From a virus (taxonomy: Duplodnaviria > Heunggongvirae > Uroviricota > Caudoviricetes): 45,755 nucleotides of DNA. Below, one piece after another: positions 25,992-33,187 of this stretch. The stretch lies in IMG/VR virus record IMGVR_UViG_2703718845_000006; one strand, given 5' to 3'. Position numbers and translations under genes: made by a program. Within the stretch, counting starts at the first letter, position 1. Each line of letters begins with the position of its first letter. The notes under the pieces were generated by a model. That model did not search any database and was not told the DNA's origin. It was given only the letters and a program-made list of their open reading frames with translations.

Positions 25992-26459
25992 TCATCGAAG
26001 GCATTGCGTCCTGATGTATTCCTGAAGCGTTCTCAGTGCTGTTTGGTCGCTGATGATTCCGTCCCGGATACCGAGAACGTTTCGTCCAGCAACTGGAGAG
26101 AGTTCGACGGTGGCATCATTGCCCATGCCGGAGGCGCTGGAGGTTTCGGCTGAGGATGGCACAGGGCATTTTCCTTTGACGAACACCCGACCACCATTAT
26201 CAAGCTTGCGCCGAAGAGCATCATTTTCAGCTTTCGCATCAGCTAACTCCTTCGTGTATTTAGCATCGAGTGCATCAGCAGAACGCTGGCGCTGCTGCAT
26301 GTCAGTAATGGTGGCGGTCGCCTGCTTCAGCTCACTGACTTTTTTATCTCGCTGTTCTTTGTAGGCGATGGCGTTATCACGGTAATGATTGACCGCCCAC
26401 GACAGGCAGACGATGATGCAGATAACCAGAGCGGAGATAATCGCGGTTACTCTGCTCAT
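25992..26459 (-). CDS. Rz: Rz i-spanin
   Basis: [48 protein letters not shown] is nearly identical to lambda Rz over the N-terminal half. Confidence 0.9.
26033..26239 (-). CDS. Rz1: Rz1 o-spanin lipoprotein, embedded in Rz in another frame
   Basis: [21 protein letters not shown] (lipobox VVGC) followed by a proline-rich stretch [16 protein letters not shown], entirely inside Rz. Confidence 0.8.
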
Positions 26460-26953
26460 TGTTGCCCCCACAAACAGACTTCACGCTCAATCTCACGACG
26501 AGTCATCAGGCCTTTCCATTGCTTACCGCCAGCGTATGTCCAGCGACGTAGCTGGTCACATGCGCCTTTGATATCGCCCTGGTTTATTTTGCGAAGAAGC
26601 GTCGATGTTCTGAAATTGCCAGCACCCACGTTGTAGACGAACGAGTAAAGAGCGCCGCGCGTTGTTTCCGGTATATCGACTTTGATGTACGGGTTAATTT
26701 GTCTGGCGACCGTGGCAAGGTCTTTATTCAGGAGGGCTTTGCATTCTGCTTCGGTATACGTTTTACCGAGCATGATGTCTTTTCCGGTGTGTCCGTGACA
26801 TACAGTCCATACGCCAACGATATCTTTGTATGGTATGTAGCTGACACCTTCCAGGCCATCGTCACCACTTGGGCCAGTGATTAACACTGATGCTATAGCA
26901 ATTGCTCCGCCACCAATAGCAGCAGCAACTGCTTTTCGTAATGATGGAGGCAT
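26456..26953 (-). CDS. R: SAR endolysin (phage-21-type lysozyme)
   Basis: N-terminal signal-anchor-release segment [20 protein letters not shown] followed by a lysozyme-like domain; resembles the phage 21 endolysin. Confidence 0.9.
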
Positions 26954-27168
26954 TATTCACCTCTCGCAGCCTTGCGCTTATCTTCTTTAATCTTGAAATA
27001 AAGGTTTGTCAGGTACGTCAGCAGGCCAAATACCAGGCTACCCAGCACACCTATTGCTGCCCACTGTGAGGGCGTGACTTTATCGAGCAGCTGTAAAAAC
27101 CAGTAACCGGCACTACCTGCTGAGGTGCCATAGGCGACACCCGTTGTTAACTTATCCATGGATTTCAT
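26953..27168 (-). CDS. S: Pinholin (phage-21 S-type holin)
   Basis: 71 aa, two TM segments ([13 protein letters not shown].., [17 protein letters not shown]) and a charged C-terminus; directly upstream of the SAR endolysin. Confidence 0.9.
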
Positions 27169-27234: not shown

Positions 27235-28287
27235 TTATTTCCCCACCAGCTCGTTTATCTCTTTCACTGTCTGGTTAAACCGCTCTGACTCAAGCTCAAC
27301 ACCTAAGGCCCGACGCCCCAGCGCCATTGCTGCTTTTATTGTGGAACCGGATCCCATAAAAAAATCAGCAACCAGATCACCAGGTCGACTACTGGCATTG
27401 ATTATTTGCCTGAGCATATCCGCCGGTTTCTCACACGGATGTTTACCCGGGTAGAACTGAACGGGTTTATGCATCCAGACATCGGTATAAGGCACGGAGA
27501 CTGATACGGAGAAATAGCGCCGGAGAGATTTAAACTCATCCAGCAATTCAGAATATTTGCGATTCAGTGAATCATAAGATGCCACCAGCTGGTGGTGTGG
27601 TTGTTCCAGTTGTTGTTCCTGAAACTTCTCTGCCGCTATACGGGAAAACAGTGCCTGTAACTTCCGATAGTCAGCCTCATTCGGCAACTGCCACTGACTG
27701 GCACCAAACCAGTGGGAAACCATATTTTTCTTACCTGTGGCTTCGGCAATTTGTTTTGCCGTTATACCCAGTTCGGCACGAGCATCCCTGAAATACGATA
27801 TCAGCGGTGCCATTATGTGCTGTTTGAGTGCCCTTTCTTTTGCCGCATAGCCGTCACTTTTGCCGCGATATGGCCCCTGGTAATGTTCAGCAAACAGAAC
27901 GCGCTCTGTGGCAGGAAAATATGCGCGCAGACTTTCTTTATTACACCCATTCCAACGTCCGGACGGCTTCGCCCAGATGATATGGTTAAGCACGTTGAAA
28001 CGTTCACGCATCATGATCTCAATATCAGATGCCAGGCGATGCCCACAGAACAGGTAAAGGCTTCCGGCAGGTTTCAACACCCGCCAGAACTGGGCCAGAC
28101 AGTGGTCCAGCCACTTAAGGTAATCTTCGTCCCCTTTCCACTGATTGTCCCAACCGTTGGGTTTCACCTTGAAGTAAGGCGGATCGGTAACAATCAGGTC
28201 AATGGAATCATCAGGCAGGGACTGAATAAAATGCAGGCAATCAGCGTTGATTAAATCAACACTGTTTATTTTTACAGTATTTTTCAT
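27235..28287 (-). CDS. DNA methyltransferase, beta class (N6-adenine or N4-cytosine; YhdJ-like)
   Basis: DPPY motif (IVTDPPYF) near the N-terminus and AdoMet-binding FFMGSGST near the C-terminus (motif IV before I). Confidence 0.85.
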   Translation of the reverse strand: MKNTVKINSVDLINADCLHFIQSLPDDSIDLIVTDPPYFKVKPNGWDNQWKGDEDYLKWLDHCLAQFWRVLKPAGSLYLFCGHRLASDIEIMMRERFNVLNHIIWAKPSGRWNGCNKESLRAYFPATERVLFAEHYQGPYRGKSDGYAAKERALKQHIMAPLISYFRDARAELGITAKQIAEATGKKNMVSHWFGASQWQLPNEADYRKLQALFSRIAAEKFQEQQLEQPHHQLVASYDSLNRKYSELLDEFKSLRRYFSVSVSVPYTDVWMHKPVQFYPGKHPCEKPADMLRQIINASSRPGDLVADFFMGSGSTIKAAMALGRRALGVELESERFNQTVKEINELVGK

Positions 28288-28436: not shown

Positions 28437-28655
28437 TCATTGCTGAAGGCGTCTGTAACAGCCGAACTGGTAATCTGCCAGCCCCGCCATAACCAACTGG
28501 GTCAGTATTAACTGACAGCGTTCGCGTGAAAGATATGTGTTTTGTGCAATCTCCCCGACTGTTGCCGGTTCGATGCTTAATTCATTAAAAACAACTTTCG
28601 CCGTTTCTGTCATATCTTGCTGTTTTAGCATGTCTTTTTTCCTTCTGGTTAACAT
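28437..28655 (-). CDS. Small hypothetical protein (possible winged-helix DNA-binding protein); start uncertain
   Basis: 72-aa ORF between the tR'-like terminator and the methyltransferase gene; TVGEIAQNTYLSRERCQLILTQLVMAGLA looks HTH-like. Confidence 0.4.
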   Translation of the reverse strand: MLTRRKKDMLKQQDMTETAKVVFNELSIEPATVGEIAQNTYLSRERCQLILTQLVMAGLADYQFGCYRRLQQ

Positions 28656-28752: not shown

Positions 28753-28779
28753 CAAAAAAACCCGCTCGACGGCGGGTTT
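28753..28779 (-). terminator. Strong intrinsic terminator on the minus strand, upstream of the lysis-proximal genes (tR'-like)
   Basis: Stem ACCCGC / GCGGGT (28760-28777) followed on the minus strand by seven U (complement of AAAAAAA at 28753-28759). Confidence 0.7.
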
Positions 28780-28834
28780 AAGTTGTGTGGCGAAGTAACC
28801 ACTCTTAACACAATACAATACTTTTTGCGTACGC

Positions 28835-28863
28835 GTTATAGTTTTCTTACAATCAACTTTCAA
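28835..28863 (-). promoter_or_regulatory. Candidate sigma70 promoter on the minus strand (possible late promoter), back-to-back with the start of the DUF262 gene
   Basis: Minus strand reads TTGAAA - 17 bp - TATAAC (rc of plus 28858-28863 and 28835-28840), about 60 nt upstream of the terminator at 28753-28779. Confidence 0.3.
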
Positions 28864-28879
28864 TTAAAGGAACGAAAAC

Positions 28880-30040
28880 ATGACTACACTCAAAGAACTC
28901 AAAGAAGAGCTTGCTCAGATACAAGATGAACACGCTAAGAACAGAAAAAAGGCTGAAATTGCAGCTTTAACCGCTTCCGCTGACAATGAAATCAGACTCG
29001 CTCAGAGAAACATTGGATACAATGTACGTGAGTGGACCGTTGAAGTCATTATTCAAAAGTATGGTGATAATATTGAAAATGACAAAAACGAGCTTTTTAT
29101 TCCAGATTATCAACGTGATTACAAGTGGGATACAAAAACAGCCTCTCGCTTTATAGAAAGTATTCTATTAGACTTTCCAATACCTTACCTTTACATTGCT
29201 GATGTATTTAATGAAGACCCTGAATTAGATGGTAGGGTAGAAATCATTGATGGTTCACAACGGATACGCTCTATTTATTATTTTTGGAACGATCAATTTG
29301 AGTTAAAGGATTTGAAAGAGCTTAAAAGTTTAGAAGGTTTCAAATTTTCAGATCTTTTAGCTAGCCGCCAAAGAAGATTTTTAAGAGCTTCACTAAGATT
29401 TATTGAGTTGAAAGGTGATGTTGAGGAACAACATAGAAGAGATTTATTTGAAAGGATCAACTCAGGTGTTAAAAGATTAGAAGCGATGGAAGTGAGGCAT
29501 GGCTCAGATGCTGCTACCTCAATGTTCTATAAAGATGTTGTGACCCCATGCTCAACAAACTCACTTTTTTCCCAACTAGCTCCATTATCAGACCGGAAAC
29601 GGTCGAATGGCGATCATCGTGAGTTAGTTTTGAGATTTTTTGCATATTTAAATGATTTAGAAAACTATAAGGGATTTGTCCGTCCCTTTATTGATAATTA
29701 TTTAAATGAACAAGCAGCAGCTGTGACTACTCAACAAGATGTTGATAATTTTAAACATGATTTTGAAATGATGCTTGCTTTTGTTGCTACCCATTTCCCT
29801 ATTGGCTTTAAAAAGACCGCAACAAGTAAAACCACCCCACGAGCCAGATACGAAGCCATTGCCGTGGGAACTGCACTTGCATTAAAAACTAACCCACAAC
29901 TCCAGAGTCCAGCCGTACCTGTAGGTGAATGGCTATTTGAAGAGGAATTTGAAACACTTGTTACTGCTGATAGTGCAAACAATACCAGCCAGCTAAAAAA
30001 CAGAATCTTTTACGTTAAAAATAAGTTGTTAGGGATTTAA
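28880..30040 (+). CDS. DUF262 (ParB-like nuclease/NTPase, GmrS-like) domain protein, 386 aa
   Basis: IPDYQRDYKW and DGSQR (aa 124-128, nt 29249-29263) match the DUF262 signature; AAGGAA RBS 8 nt before the ATG; AT-rich; no DUF1524/HNH-like C-terminal domain recognised. Confidence 0.85.
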   Translation: MTTLKELKEELAQIQDEHAKNRKKAEIAALTASADNEIRLAQRNIGYNVREWTVEVIIQKYGDNIENDKNELFIPDYQRDYKWDTKTASRFIESILLDFPIPYLYIADVFNEDPELDGRVEIIDGSQRIRSIYYFWNDQFELKDLKELKSLEGFKFSDLLASRQRRFLRASLRFIELKGDVEEQHRRDLFERINSGVKRLEAMEVRHGSDAATSMFYKDVVTPCSTNSLFSQLAPLSDRKRSNGDHRELVLRFFAYLNDLENYKGFVRPFIDNYLNEQAAAVTTQQDVDNFKHDFEMMLAFVATHFPIGFKKTATSKTTPRARYEAIAVGTALALKTNPQLQSPAVPVGEWLFEEEFETLVTADSANNTSQLKNRIFYVKNKLLGI

Positions 30041-30042
30041 AA

Positions 30043-30732
30043 ATGAGTCTAATTGATTTACGAGATGAATATGAAGAAAGAGCAAGAGACATTATGGAAC
30101 TGCTTTCTCTTGCATCATCTATAGAGATTCATACTCAGCAGTTAGATCCGCAAGCGCATCAAGATGAAATAGAATCTAATATCCTAAGGGTAAATATTTT
30201 AAAATCATCCGTTCATATGATGCTATATAATCAAGTTGAAAATACTGCCAGAGGTTGCATCGAGTCAATTTATGATCATTTACAAGATAATGAGGTGAAT
30301 TACGCATCACTCAGGGAGAAGCTTCAAGTAAATATATTACATAGAATTGTTTCAGATAATGAAACAGGGCAATCCCTTTATAAAAAGATAGGCACTGACA
30401 TTTCCAAAAGAATAATTTCAGCCTCATTGAATATTCGTAAAGAATTCAATGGTAATGTTTGCAAGCCTGTATTACACAAAATAACGCAGGCTTACGGAAT
30501 AACTATCGCAAACTCACCTGAATGTAGAAATGGTATTGACTTAGACTTGCTTAAGGATATCAGAAACGAACTCGCGCATGGAAGTACTAGCTTCTCTAAA
30601 AAGGGGCAAATTGACCCCTTAGAAGAAGTTAAGTCTAGAGCAGAGAGAGTTGATCTATATCTTCGTTTATTAATAAACTCAACTGAAGATTATATTATCT
30701 CTAACGGATATTTATCCCCTCAACATGCCTAA
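30043..30732 (+). CDS. HEPN-like protein (putative nuclease), 229 aa, translationally coupled to the DUF262 gene
   Basis: Starts 2 nt after the DUF262 stop; R-x4-H motif RNELAH at aa 174-179 (nt 30562-30579) in a predicted helical protein; 3' end overlaps the convergent methyltransferase gene by about 32 bp. Confidence 0.75.
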   Translation: MSLIDLRDEYEERARDIMELLSLASSIEIHTQQLDPQAHQDEIESNILRVNILKSSVHMMLYNQVENTARGCIESIYDHLQDNEVNYASLREKLQVNILHRIVSDNETGQSLYKKIGTDISKRIISASLNIRKEFNGNVCKPVLHKITQAYGITIANSPECRNGIDLDLLKDIRNELAHGSTSFSKKGQIDPLEEVKSRAERVDLYLRLLINSTEDYIISNGYLSPQHA

Positions 30733-31741
30733 CAAACGTTCTCCCTATTACTTGGCCAATTATAGGGGGAACAGCATTACCAATCATCGTTCCTAACTTT
30801 TGGAATGAAAAAGGCGTATTTTTTCCAATAAATTTATAATCCATAGGAAAAGATTGTAAAATAGCAGCTTCACGCAAAGTTATTGCTCTATTTTGCTCAG
30901 GATGTCCGAATCGCCCATTACCATATCCATAACATTGGGTAGTTATTGTAGGACTAGTATCGTCCCAAACCATCCGTCCATAAACACTTTTATAGGTAGC
31001 ACCTGAATGCTTTTTATGGCAATCCGCTCTAATTTCTTCAGGCCAATCATCCCACGTACCACCTGGTAAAGAGTGCAAGATTCGTTTAAGGTTAATATCC
31101 CTTAATTTAGGCGAACGATGCAATGGATCACTTTCGAGTTTCTCCCCTGCACCTATTTTTGGCAACTGACCAATAGCATCCTTTACTGTAACTTTACGGC
31201 TTACTTTTTTTTGATCAAGGCTGATTGGCCCCAATATGGACCCAATTAGAATTAATCTACGTCTATTTTGAGGCAAGCCATACTCGGAACATTTTACAAC
31301 GTCGTACCACAGATGATACCCAAGAGTCTTTAATACACTAACAAACTCTTCAAAAACCTTATGATTTCTAAGTTGAGGAACATTTTCCATAGTCACAAGC
31401 TCTGGCATGACATCACTTACAATCCTCTGAAACTCAGATAAAAGACGCCACTTTGTATCATCTTTTCTGCTATTTGGATTACGATACTTGGAAAACGGTT
31501 GGCAAGGGGCACAGCCTGCAAGTAATCTAATATTTCCTTCCTTGAACATAGCAGACACATCGCTGGATTGCAGTTCAGTAACTGACTGGTTAATGAACTT
31601 CGTTAAGGGATTATTGCTCTCAATAGCGAAACGGCAGGACTCATCAATATCAATGCCATGAGAAACTTCAATCCCGGCTTTTTTTAGCCCAAAAGTTAAG
31701 CCCCCTGCGCCACAAAAAATGTCTACTGCTTGAATGTTCAC
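30701..31741 (-). CDS. DNA (cytosine-5) methyltransferase
   Basis: Motif I FCGAGG, motif IV GCAPCQPFS (PCQ), motif VI ENV, motif VIII QNRRR, motif X GNAVPP; GTG start with GGAGA RBS; a TATAAT hexamer lies in the 80-bp gap after Q. Confidence 0.9.
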   Translation of the reverse strand: MNIQAVDIFCGAGGLTFGLKKAGIEVSHGIDIDESCRFAIESNNPLTKFINQSVTELQSSDVSAMFKEGNIRLLAGCAPCQPFSKYRNPNSRKDDTKWRLLSEFQRIVSDVMPELVTMENVPQLRNHKVFEEFVSVLKTLGYHLWYDVVKCSEYGLPQNRRRLILIGSILGPISLDQKKVSRKVTVKDAIGQLPKIGAGEKLESDPLHRSPKLRDINLKRILHSLPGGTWDDWPEEIRADCHKKHSGATYKSVYGRMVWDDTSPTITTQCYGYGNGRFGHPEQNRAITLREAAILQSFPMDYKFIGKNTPFSFQKLGTMIGNAVPPIIGQVIGRTFVRHVEGINIR

Positions 31742-31820
31742 AAGATTCTCCGTTACTTTACCCTGGTATTATATACACATAAAAGTTGGGAAAGTAGAAT
31801 GATTTTACATAGCACTTAAC

Positions 31821-32189
31821 TCATTGTATTAAATAAAAAAATGACAAGCATCCATCAATAAACCCCATAGCTGTTTGCATATCTTTTCGAACTGTTCCGT
31901 CTGAACATTTCCGCTTCTTTGCAATTGTACGGAGCGAAATGCCAACAACAAAGTGAGCAATTATCAGCTCATACTCTGCCGGCTTGTATTTACGCAACCT
32001 AGCGACACAACCGTCTATTATGATGCCCTCATCATCATCGCACTGAATCCGGGACTTTCTGCCATGAGGTAAAAGCCGCTTGAAGCCAGCAGCTACCGGT
32101 TGCCAGTCCACACCACTGTTTTCTGCAGCAGCCCATGCCCCCCAGCGGTCCAAAACTTCATACATATCACGCATCAACTTTCTCCACAA
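31821..32189 (-). CDS. Q: Late-gene antitermination protein Q (Phage_antitermQ family)
   Basis: 122 aa; VLDRWGAWAAA..DWQPVAAGFKRLLP..IQCDDDEG.IIDGCVARL..CSDGTV pattern of the small Q family found in E. coli prophages (as recalled). Confidence 0.85.
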   Translation of the reverse strand: MWRKLMRDMYEVLDRWGAWAAAENSGVDWQPVAAGFKRLLPHGRKSRIQCDDDEGIIIDGCVARLRKYKPAEYELIIAHFVVGISLRTIAKKRKCSDGTVRKDMQTAMGFIDGCLSFFYLIQ

Positions 32190-32191
32190 AA

Positions 32192-33187
32192 TCAGGCCAG
32201 CACGCCAATTGCCAGCGCACGATCGATAAAACGAAATATCAGCTCCAGCTGGGAACCATACTTCTCTTCAAATGCCACGGTATCCGCATGCAGCTCGTCG
32301 TGATGCTTTCTGCACAAAGGCAACACAAAGAGGTCATGCGCTTTTGTACCCATTCCCCCCTGACCGTGGCCTATCAGGTGGTGGGGATCATCAGCAGGCT
32401 TTCCACAACATGCACACGGCTGTGTCTTAACCCAGCGTGTGTACTTTTCATTAACCCAGCGGCGACGTTTTGGGCGTAACATAAAAGACTCCGGCGACTC
32501 CGGATCCACTTTCAGCGCCAGCACATTTTTCGCCTTATCCTGGATGATGCTGGTGGCAGGAACCGAAGGCACAAGGTCACTTTCCCGGGTGACAGACGGC
32601 ACAACAGGCTTCGGTAATCTCAGTGCCTTACGGGCTGCACTTTCCGGTAAGGCATCCGCCAGGTCATTACGAATCAGCCACCAGCACAGTTCCGGCATTG
32701 TCACAACGTGACTGTCATCAAAACCGAGATCCCGACGCACAACAGACAACACCCAGCGGGCACAGTTATCCGTTGCCATTGATTCCAGCCGTTCCGTGAA
32801 CTGATCACGCAGCTGGTTATCGCAGTGCCAGCACAGACGGATTGCGCCCGGCGCGTGTCGCATTGTGGTCATGTTCTCGCTGTGCCAATCGGAATGAGGC
32901 CACTGGCAGCCTTTTTCACGAAGTAACCAGCTTTCAAGACATTCCACGCCACCAGCACGACGGATCACTGCCTCATTGCGGAACACGGCCCGAACGGCAG
33001 GATCATCCGCCAGCGGTTGTGATGCCGCCGGAACGGCACCACTGGCGAAAGATGAATAACGTTCCGGCTCAGGCTCCAGCAGGACACGCCCCTGCATAAA
33101 CAGGGGCATCAGCTCTGAACCTGGCCTGAACAATACGATCCCCATACGCGGGGCAATTTCAGGGGTCAGTAATGCTCTCACGGTCAC
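32192..33187 (-). CDS. DUF968 (YdfU-like) nin-region protein
   Basis: 331 aa; C-terminal Cys/His cluster (CACCGKPADDPHHL..HD..LPLCRKHHDELH); position next to Q. Confidence 0.7.
   Translation of the reverse strand: MTVRALLTPEIAPRMGIVLFRPGSELMPLFMQGRVLLEPEPERYSSFASGAVPAASQPLADDPAVRAVFRNEAVIRRAGGVECLESWLLREKGCQWPHSDWHSENMTTMRHAPGAIRLCWHCDNQLRDQFTERLESMATDNCARWVLSVVRRDLGFDDSHVVTMPELCWWLIRNDLADALPESAARKALRLPKPVVPSVTRESDLVPSVPATSIIQDKAKNVLALKVDPESPESFMLRPKRRRWVNEKYTRWVKTQPCACCGKPADDPHHLIGHGQGGMGTKAHDLFVLPLCRKHHDELHADTVAFEEKYGSQLELIFRFIDRALAIGVLA

Follow-up and report, generated by a model that had tools for sequence, protein, structure and literature searches.

A conserved, probably defensive gene cassette of a DUF262 protein, a HEPN protein and a C5 cytosine methyltransferase in a lambdoid prophage

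The locus

The window considered here is a 45,755-nucleotide stretch of viral DNA (Caudoviricetes; IMG/VR record IMGVR_UViG_2703718845_000006), and the subject of this work is a group of three adjoining genes that lie within it at positions 28880–31741. Gene A (28880..30040, plus strand) encodes a 386-amino acid (aa) DUF262 protein, a nucleoside triphosphatase (NTPase) of the ParB/Srx fold; gene B (30043..30732, plus strand) encodes a 229-aa, all-helical HEPN protein of the MAE_28990 family; and gene M (30701..31741, minus strand), which begins with a GTG start codon, encodes a 346-aa C5 cytosine DNA methyltransferase. A and B are tightly coupled: A ends in TTAGGGATTTAA, with its TAA stop codon at 30038–30040, and is followed by AA and then by the ATG of B, leaving a gap of 2 nt, whilst the sequence AGGGA is found 7 nt 5' of that ATG. 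B and M are convergent, and their 3' ends overlap by 32 bp (30701..30732). The GC content across 28.8–31.8 kb is 0.33–0.41, compared with 0.45–0.58 in the flanks. An earlier reading of this DNA from its letters alone (hereafter the original prediction) had described an AT-rich module of two coupled genes that overlap a convergent methyltransferase by about 32 bp, all of which is borne out, and its coordinates, strands and quoted motifs (IPDYQRDYKW and DGSQR in A, RNELAH in B) are reproduced in full by the table of open reading frames (ORFs). The analysis described below points to a genuine, conserved and probably defensive unit, whose operon type was already listed in 2013 and which is related to the validated system PD-T4-2.

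The three proteins

Comparison of A with Pfam places it in the GmrSD_N/DUF262 family (5.8e-26, 92 bits with a cutoff of 33, aa 66–206). The N-terminal DUF262 motifs QR, DGxQR and FxxxN are all present; A contains the stretches FIPDYQRDYKW and IIDGSQRIRS, within which IPDYQRDYKW and DGSQR are invariant in homologues. DUF1524 (PF07510) was not matched in A by the Pfam scan, nor was any His-Me or HNH match obtained by structural comparison, so that both methods agree with the original prediction, which had recognised no DUF1524/HNH partner domain in this protein. Among the PADLOC models the best match is to NsnA (5.9e-45, aa 14–315 aligned to model positions 11–302 of 385), and a weaker match is made to PD-T4-2_A (PDLC04027; 4.6e-27, 93 bits, aa 72–346 aligned to positions 52–322 of 363), which suggests membership with PD-T4-2_A at the level of the superfamily only. 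A weak match to the REase_II model PDLC03418 (7e-4), falling inside the DUF262 region, is the sole link to restriction-endonuclease folds. In the AlphaFold model of A (predicted local distance difference test score, pLDDT, of 81), the N-terminal domain is of the alpha/beta type and resembles ParB, the C-terminal half is entirely helical, and the structures closest to the model are BrxU (the top match), SspE and DndI. The family is a large one, with 3237 matches at E ≤ 1e-3, including proteins of 53–64% identity in Vibrio, Pseudomonas and Photobacterium. On the basis of these sequence and model comparisons, it is proposed that A is a sensor/NTPase with no recognisable nuclease. The alternative that A is itself a DNase was considered and is judged unlikely, because the characterised DUF262 enzymes cut DNA by means of a fused DUF1524 domain, which A lacks, as it lacks any other recognisable nuclease domain.

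B was assigned to the HEPN superfamily because two Pfam models are matched above threshold and the expected motif is present. The match to HEPN_MAE_28990 (PF18737) is the stronger (2.9e-17, 64 bits with a cutoff of 26.8) and spans almost the entire protein, aa 6–223 being aligned to profile positions 5–211 of 211, whilst HEPN_RiboL-PSP is matched with 32 bits (cutoff 28.4); the profile search therefore agrees with the original prediction that the second protein is HEPN-like. The motif RNELAH corresponds to R174–H179. Forty-six B homologues, the most distant with 19% identity, were aligned, and Y62, E66, G137, N138 and R174-N-x-x-A-H179-G proved invariant among them, which is the canonical HEPN signature; the form RN[DE]LAH is found in 85/85 of the genome loci described below. 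The B family is of moderate size (1272 representatives at E ≤ 1e-3 among 1.84 billion), and B is proposed, from its sequence, to be the effector RNase. NCBIfam holds no model for either A or B, and both fall under ‘unknown function’ in PHROGs.

M is matched by Pfam DNA_methylase (PF00145; 2.7e-54, 185 bits) and by the dcm model TIGR00675 (1.8e-34), such that the DUF262, HEPN and C5-methyltransferase calls of the original prediction all exceed the Pfam thresholds. The PADLOC models matched are MTase_II (1.2e-88) and DrmMII (7.7e-85). All of the C5 catalytic motifs are present (FCGAGG, PCQ, ENV, QNRRR and GNAVPP). The nearest solved structures are DNMT1, HaeIII and HhaI, with the likeness confined to the catalytic motifs. 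When 59 distinct orthologues were aligned, the most conserved part of M was found to be the target-recognition region at approximately aa 200–300, between motifs VIII and IX, and for this reason the whole M family probably shares one recognition specificity. M is not among the methylases covered by the published methylome of E. coli sequence type 131 (ST131).

Conservation and linkage of the three genes

The trio of A, B and M recurs in more than 200 independent loci, and this recurrence, together with the presence of long ORFs in AT-rich DNA and matches to hidden Markov models (HMMs) above threshold, is far beyond chance. In complete E. coli genomes, A–B DNA was found in 107 of 5426 genomes (at 108 places) and M DNA in the same genomes and places; M adjoins A–B at 108/108 of these, and the full 3.1 kb is intact in the 107 genomes. 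Two alleles can be distinguished, the first in 34 genomes with at least 99% identity to the window and the second in 73 genomes, many of them ST131, with 84.6% (A–B) and 90.7% (M) identity. Viral sequences give the same picture: 53 loci were recovered from IMG/VR, of which all 53 have A and 52 have M, the sole exception being a contig that ends right after B. There is accordingly no M-less A–B pair at any of the 108 E. coli places or at any of the 52 viral loci whose contig continues past B.

Beyond E. coli, the same trio is found in Salmonella bongori prophages, in a Yersinia lambdoid prophage (locus L002), where it again lies between Q and the holin gene, and in a Tn7-like element of Pseudoalteromonas in which B retains 42% identity. 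A scan of species-representative genomes added 80 further loci, with B proteins of 24–37% identity, from cyanobacteria, several proteobacterial classes, Actinomycetota, Bacteroidota, Spirochaetota, Planctomycetota, Verrucomicrobiota, Acidobacteriota, Chloroflexota and Myxococcota. Across the resulting 85 genome loci, which cover at least 10 phyla, the gene immediately upstream of B is an A homologue in 84, and an M homologue (E 1e-105 to 1e-135 in most) adjoins A–B in 72. The position of the methylase varies amongst these 72 loci, being convergent in 44, in the order A-B-M in 15 and M-A-B in 13, with gaps of -89 to +129 nt; the abutting or overlapping arrangement is kept, the median gap being -4 nt in the genome loci and -32 nt in the viral loci. 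At three loci (L006, L056 and L068), the place of M is taken by a non-orthologous C5 methylase, with 24–31% identity to M in the two that were compared. The three proteins also diverge together, with a Pearson r of 0.97 for A against B and of about 0.8 for M against either; their median identities to the window proteins are 0.40 (A), 0.25 (B) and 0.51 (M).

The original prediction had raised the question of whether DUF262–HEPN pairs co-occur with a C5-methyltransferase elsewhere, and they do so in 108/108, 52/53 and 72/85 of the loci in the three surveys. Because the methylase is co-inherited with A–B across phyla in three gene orders, it is no independent neighbour, and the possibility raised at the outset of an ‘independent anti-restriction methyltransferase’ was rejected. 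The linkage of the three genes appears to be obligate, and the comparisons indicate that M is an integral part of the unit, with the three genes forming one cassette.

The cassette is carried by several kinds of mobile element, and other settings in which it occurs include the P2 hotspot after replication gene A, Tn7-like cargo and a linear plasmid. A near-identical copy is present in no deposited phage genome searched, and at the protein level the cassette was found, among phages, only in the P2-like phage P24B2 and in Moraxella phages. In Peduovirus P24B2 (L089, 2021–3041), M is split by a frameshift near aa 227; related P2-like contigs in IMG/VR have an intact M. A diverged pair, comprising a DUF262 protein of 353 aa and a MAE_28990 HEPN protein of 211 aa, has parM as its neighbour on conjugative plasmids from both E. 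coli and Salmonella, one example being the E. coli IncFIA plasmid pVE155 (L090, 2828–4528). It is a methylase-free relative, with an architecture closer to that of PD-T4-2.

Alternative partners of the methylase family

An alignment of M orthologues was used as the seed for a search of IMG/VR, and the best 80 matches (47–100% identity) were kept. A–B adjoin the M orthologue in 46 of these 80, leaving 34 in which they do not. In 19 of the 34, M is abutted by a gene for a GHKL ATPase of 545–763 aa; scans of three members gave matches to Pfam HATPase_c_3 and to the PADLOC REase_II model PDLC03419 (E 1e-40 to 1e-97), and one of the three has a weak tail resembling Shedu SduA_C. A SNF2 helicase of ~1050 aa is the partner in a further five, the one that was scanned scoring 1500–1760 bits on the DISARM models DrmD/DrmA, and a NERD-UvrD helicase is the partner in one. 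The remaining nine have none of these partners, some of them lying at contig ends. Among the best 80 there is no locus at which A–B occur together with a GHKL, DrmD/DrmA or NERD partner. The M orthologues beside alternative partners (loci L157–L223) have 47–57% identity, and their target-recognition region is likewise conserved; several of these loci lie at the P2 hotspot. The exchange can be seen at a single genomic position: on P2-like contigs, M and a GHKL gene occupy the hotspot after replication gene A, which is the place held by M, B and A in P24B2 and in the two IMG/VR contigs L133 and L135.

The arm that accompanies this methylase is hence exchangeable, and the partners of the one M family are mutually exclusive, which places A–B in the restriction (‘R’) slot of a pair formed by a modification and a restriction gene. 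There is also an asymmetry, in that M exists without A–B and phage A–B have never been seen without M, and this is what a restriction-modification-like dependency would predict.

Prophage setting and candidate regulatory elements

In the window, the cassette is inserted amongst genes of the minus strand, which run in the order DUF968/HNH-like gene, Q, M, (B and A, antisense), terminator, phrog_331 ORF, N6/N4 methylase, holin and lysozyme. The antiterminator gene Q is found at 31821..32189 (minus strand; Pfam Phage_antitermQ, 5.4e-46), the holin gene at 26953–27168 and the lysozyme gene at 26456–26953 (both minus strand). The flanks are common to SfV, mEp460, cdtI and Ayreon. Homology to SfV and Ayreon is lost precisely at 28778 and regained at 32180, so that positions 28779–32179 are a variable mosaic segment consisting of Q and the cassette, bounded by the late-gene regulator and a tR'-like terminator. 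Q adjoins M in 25 of the 53 IMG/VR loci, in the same order as in the window (Q-M-B-A), and the Q homologue lies 60–90 nt from M in these 25 and in the Yersinia locus L002; Q travels with the cassette in lambdoid prophages. The placement of the module by the original prediction in the moron slot between Q and the lysis genes, against the strand of the late operon, is thus supported both by the gap in SfV/Ayreon homology and by the 25 IMG/VR contigs and the Yersinia prophage, which are arranged alike.

A candidate promoter for A–B was read from the sequence at 28825..28853 (plus strand), and consists of TTGCGT and TACAAT separated by a 17-nt spacer. Its putative -35 element is overlapped by an invariant 13-nt sequence, TGCGTACGCGTTA (28826–28838), that contains the overlapping GC-rich palindromes GCGTACGC, CGTACG and ACGCGT. 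This sequence has been kept 54–61 nt upstream of the start of A in 26/26 loci of the enterobacterial lambdoid clade, in which the B proteins are 57–100% identical and the flanks have diverged, and it may be an operator, or a methylation-sensitive or methylase target site. When the A–B upstream regions were searched across clades for a common short palindrome that could be the site of M, only clade-specific signals were obtained and no palindrome stood out as enriched; TGCGTACGCGTTA itself does not occur in the distant clades.

The tR'-like, strong intrinsic terminator (28758..28779, minus strand) was identified by a terminator scan and has an 8-bp stem with 5 GC pairs, followed by TTTTTGT. On the minus strand it is the first terminator to be met downstream of Q and M, and it bounds the mosaic segment on the left; the homologous position is annotated as a terminator in SfV and Ayreon. 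At the other end, a perfect TATAAT sequence (31768..31773, minus strand), ~27 nt upstream of the GTG of M, is a candidate M promoter and possibly the late promoter pR'. It lies within the 79-nt spacer between Q and M (31742–31820), where alleles with as little as 57% protein identity retain it as TATATAAT; it has no good -35 element and was not called by the promoter scan. If this TATAAT is pR' or the promoter of M, the M transcript would head toward A–B and would end at 28758 unless Q were present, such that M and an antisense transcript over B and A may lie inside a pR'–tR' unit. Such an arrangement would imply constitutive expression of M, and convergent transcription against A–B, in the lysogen.

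Three neighbouring genes were also noted. Between the tR'-like terminator and the holin gene there is a second methyltransferase gene (27235–28287, minus strand), the product of which matches N6_N4_Mtase (2.4e-42) and the PADLOC MTase_II model PDLC03265 (3.3e-152); the Pfam match covers aa 29–341 against a profile of 221 positions, and there is a weak HTH_3 match at aa 167–193. It is kept in SfV (orf48), mEp460, cdtI and Ayreon and looks like an orphan late-operon methylase with no relation to the cassette. Just beyond the mosaic boundary, a 72-aa ORF (28437–28655, minus strand) belongs to phrog_331 (unknown function) and is a homologue of SfV orf47, with weak winged-helix matches (DprA_WH, TrmB and MarR_2). 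Directly upstream of Q, a gene at 32192–33187 (minus strand) encodes a 331-aa DUF968 protein with an HNHc_6-like C-terminus, homologues of which are called ‘HNH endonuclease’ in RefSeq phage records.

Relationship to known systems

The original prediction did not recognise the combination of DUF262 and HEPN as one already named and characterised, and in this it has to be corrected: PD-T4-2 has been validated against T4, the operon type was tabulated in 2013 and RefSeq names the genes. The MAE_28990 HEPN family was defined by Anantharaman, Makarova, Burroughs, Koonin and Aravind (2013), who tabulated an operon type of ParB, MAE_28990 HEPN and DNA methylase, and who proposed that HEPN RNases act with restriction-modification systems, on the model of PrrC-EcoprrI. 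The architecture is the same as that of the cassette, which has the MAE_28990 HEPN protein, the Rx4-6H motif, DUF262 in the same operon and an adjacent methylase. That description was purely computational, occupies a single row of a table and carries no system name, and it treats the ParB domain as a DNase, whereas A looks like an NTPase sensor with no nuclease. In the same year, fusions of COG1479/DUF262 to HNH, PD-(D/E)xK or HEPN domains were described as frequent, and an association of COG1479/DUF262 with DNA-modification systems was pointed out (Makarova et al. 2013). The names given at the locus by RefSeq/PGAP are ‘DUF262 domain-containing protein’, ‘MAE_28990/MAE_18760 family HEPN-like nuclease’ and ‘DNA cytosine methyltransferase’. 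In the literature searched, no paper was found that tests the three-gene, methylase-linked version, and the term ‘MAE_28990’ was found in Anantharaman et al. (2013) only.

The closest experimentally studied system is PD-T4-2 from E. coli ECOR65, which is annotated ‘DUF262, HEPN’, protects K-12 from T4 and, when deleted, leaves ECOR65 sensitised (Vassallo et al. 2022). Comparison with it was made through the PADLOC HMMs and the published HHpred tables. As in the window, a DUF262 gene is followed by a small HEPN gene, the product of which falls by HHpred into the same two Pfam families as B (HEPN_RiboL-PSP, 97.8%; HEPN_MAE_28990, 96.9%). The two ORFs of PD-T4-2 span 1.54 kb and were cloned as a 1.82-kb fragment with no methylase, whereas the cassette has the C5 methylase as an integral third gene, and the HEPN protein of PD-T4-2 has ~165 aa compared with the 229 aa of B. 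The PADLOC model PD-T4-2_B gives no match to B at E ≤ 0.1, nor to three other diverged B proteins at E ≤ 0.01. The PADLOC v2 models would consequently call no system here, with A matching NsnA and PD-T4-2_A and B matching no partner model.

Several further systems share one part or another of the cassette. In Menshen (NsnABC), the protein most like A is NsnA, and the likeness includes the helical ‘ParBDB’ DNA-binding domain, but neither the ABC ATPase NsnB nor the effector NsnC is encoded beside A, and a HEPN gene follows directly instead. PD-T4-2, Menshen and Dazbog are grouped in reviews as DUF262 systems that have no DUF1524 and whose mechanisms are unknown, and the Menshen study suggested that DUF262 proteins beside solitary methylases might target non-modified DNA. 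In SspABCD-SspE and DndBCDE-DndI, a modification module is likewise coupled genetically to a DUF262 NTPase, which serves as the reader of that modification and has a nuclease under its control, although there the modification is phosphorothioate and not 5-methylcytosine (5mC), and the effector is a fused DUF1524 His-Me DNA nickase and not a separate HEPN protein. The type IV enzymes GmrSD and BrxU have the N-terminal DUF262 motifs in common with A, but A is without their DUF1524 nuclease, and they, unlike the cassette, have no linkage to a cognate methylase. PrrC-EcoprrI, in which a HEPN anticodon nuclease is embedded in a type Ic restriction-modification system, similarly ties a HEPN RNase to methylation-based discrimination of self from non-self, though in the cassette there is no separate DNase. 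The GHKL/REase_II-like and DISARM (DrmMII/DrmD) systems use orthologues of the same C5 methylase as modification partner and occur at the same kinds of phage hotspot; their restriction arm (a GHKL ATPase-nuclease or a SNF2 helicase) is entirely unlike DUF262 and HEPN. With respect to classical type II systems, M has intact catalytic motifs, but it has no partner of the PD-(D/E)XK, HNH, GIY-YIG or PLD fold. WonAB of V. cholerae was also considered as a homologue, wrongly, as it comprises an ABC ATPase and a PD-(D/E)xK nuclease; the DUF262 proteins of the WonAB paper are the GmrSD-like GrwAB.

Proposed mechanism and alternative explanations

The reading favoured here is that the three genes form a single mobile, methylation-coupled anti-phage cassette that is restriction-modification-like in its logic and resides as a moron in a lambdoid prophage, with Q on one side and the lysis genes on the other; the balance of the evidence leaves us about evenly divided on it. 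It corresponds to the ‘methyltransferase-protected restriction-like unit’ that was the best supported of the three readings offered in the original prediction. By analogy with the homologous PD-T4-2, a function in defence is most likely. In the mechanism proposed, M would write 5mC at one fixed motif on the resident DNA, that is, on both the chromosome and the prophage. A, as a ParB-fold NTPase with a helical DNA-binding domain, would read DNA and its methylation state and would act as an NTP-driven switch, as in SspE, BrxU and DndI, whilst B would stand in for the fused DUF1524 nuclease of GmrSD, BrxU and SspE. In the presence of unmarked foreign DNA, A would release B, the predicted HEPN RNase, and the outcome would be RNA cleavage and growth arrest or abortive infection, not classical DNA cutting.

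That unmethylated DNA should be the trigger is favoured because of the slot held by A–B and because of the asymmetry of the linkage, but a number of observations weigh against it. Every DUF262 enzyme that has been characterised biochemically senses modified, and not unmodified, DNA, and PD-T4-2 works in K-12 from a 1.8-kb clone with no methylase. Eight cyanobacterial loci have full-length A and B, with their motifs intact, and no adjacent M; in one of them, from Aphanizomenon (L019), a precise deletion of ~1.1 kb has removed M relative to the Dolichospermum locus L027, and in L016 and L038 C-terminal remnants of M are found beside an intact A–B. Furthermore, no methylase was detected near the A–B pair of pVE155. 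It follows from the intact M-less loci and from the PD-T4-2 clone that the loss of M need not be fatal, in contrast to what holds for a classical type II system, although at the loci that lack an adjacent M a methylase may act in trans. Because of the M-less loci, because PD-T4-2 is both harmless and active in K-12 in the absence of a cognate methylase, and because the characterised DUF262 proteins sense modified DNA, we put no more than roughly equal weight on this trigger being right and its being wrong.

A more far-reaching version of the favoured reading can also be set out. This would be a restriction-modification-like system with no DNase, in which A reads a specific 5mC mark and unmarked invader DNA leads to action of the HEPN RNase, so that an abortive output is gated by a host-controlled modification. 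The M family would then provide a shared ‘self-mark’ for at least three unrelated arms (DUF262–HEPN, GHKL-nuclease and DISARM), and in the enterobacterial prophage version the promoter palindrome and the location of M inside a pR'–tR' unit could time A–B to follow methylation. This extended scheme is offered tentatively, and we rather doubt that it holds in all its parts.

Of the rival explanations, the one that survives best is that A–B are an autonomous, PD-T4-2-like pair, with a type IV-like sensor of modified or phage-specific DNA (for example, that of T-even phages) and a HEPN effector, and that M is an accessory which, for instance, shields the mobile element from host restriction and does not supply a self mark. 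PD-T4-2 needs no methylase, M-less A–B pairs with intact motifs exist, and the characterised DUF262 proteins GmrSD, BrxU and GrwAB recognise modified bases; phages, moreover, often carry orphan methylases, and the window has a second methylase at 27235–28287. An accessory would, however, hardly be expected to adjoin A–B as consistently as M does in all three surveys and in three gene orders, including in non-phage chromosomal contexts, to co-diverge with A and B, or to be replaced at the same position by a different C5 methylase in three loci, and the same M family is the modification partner of proteins that match PADLOC REase_II and DISARM models. We regard this explanation as unlikely.

The opposite use of the methyl mark is also conceivable, following the logic of Ssp and DndI: A would sense the 5mC placed by M on host DNA, and this mark would license or position A–B against invaders, so that M would be required for defence. 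Such a scheme draws on the fact that BrxU, SspE and DndI are the nearest structures to A and that in both SspABCD-SspE and DndBCDE-DndI it is the DUF262 protein linked to the modification genes that senses their modification. Tolerance of the loss of M beside an intact A–B is what would be expected were unlicensed A–B inert, and a sensor tuned to a single methylated motif would be in keeping with how strictly the target-recognition region of M is conserved. Set against this, the other partners of the M family (the REase_II- and DrmD-matching proteins) are of kinds that attack unmodified DNA, and PD-T4-2 is active with no methylase of its own, even if K-12 does have Dcm; licensing by 5mC is accordingly considered quite improbable. 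Least probable by far is that A–B are a toxin-antitoxin or addiction pair, with a HEPN toxin and DUF262 as antitoxin or regulator, which keeps the prophage stable and plays no part in defence against phages, since the tight coupling and co-evolution of A and B (r 0.97), the frequency of HEPN toxins in toxin-antitoxin systems and the carriage of the cassette on mobile elements have to be set against a 386-aa NTPase/DNA-binding sensor homologous to those of proven defence systems, against the protection from T4 that homologous PD-T4-2 gives both natively and heterologously, and against an obligate methylase linkage that would be left unexplained.

Significance

No current idea is overturned by these findings, as a prediction of the family, and of what it probably does, dates from 2013; what they offer is an E. 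coli model in which a mechanism not yet characterised can readily be studied, and not a new category of system. Some 2% of complete E. coli genomes, many belonging to ST131, have the cassette, and its carriers include lambdoid and P2-like prophages, plasmids and Tn7-like elements; this prevalence and mobile carriage make it relevant to the host range of phages used in therapy and to the interpretation of 5mC methylomes. That one methylase family has interchangeable DUF262–HEPN, GHKL-ATPase and DISARM partners offers a handle for the classification of non-canonical restriction-modification systems. If the favoured reading is true, the cassette would be a clean three-gene model of how a DUF262/ParB-type NTPase couples the reading of DNA modification to a separate effector, a question that also arises for PD-T4-2, Menshen and Dazbog, all of which lack a DUF1524 nuclease, and it would mean that methylation-based discrimination between self and non-self can drive an RNase rather than a DNase.

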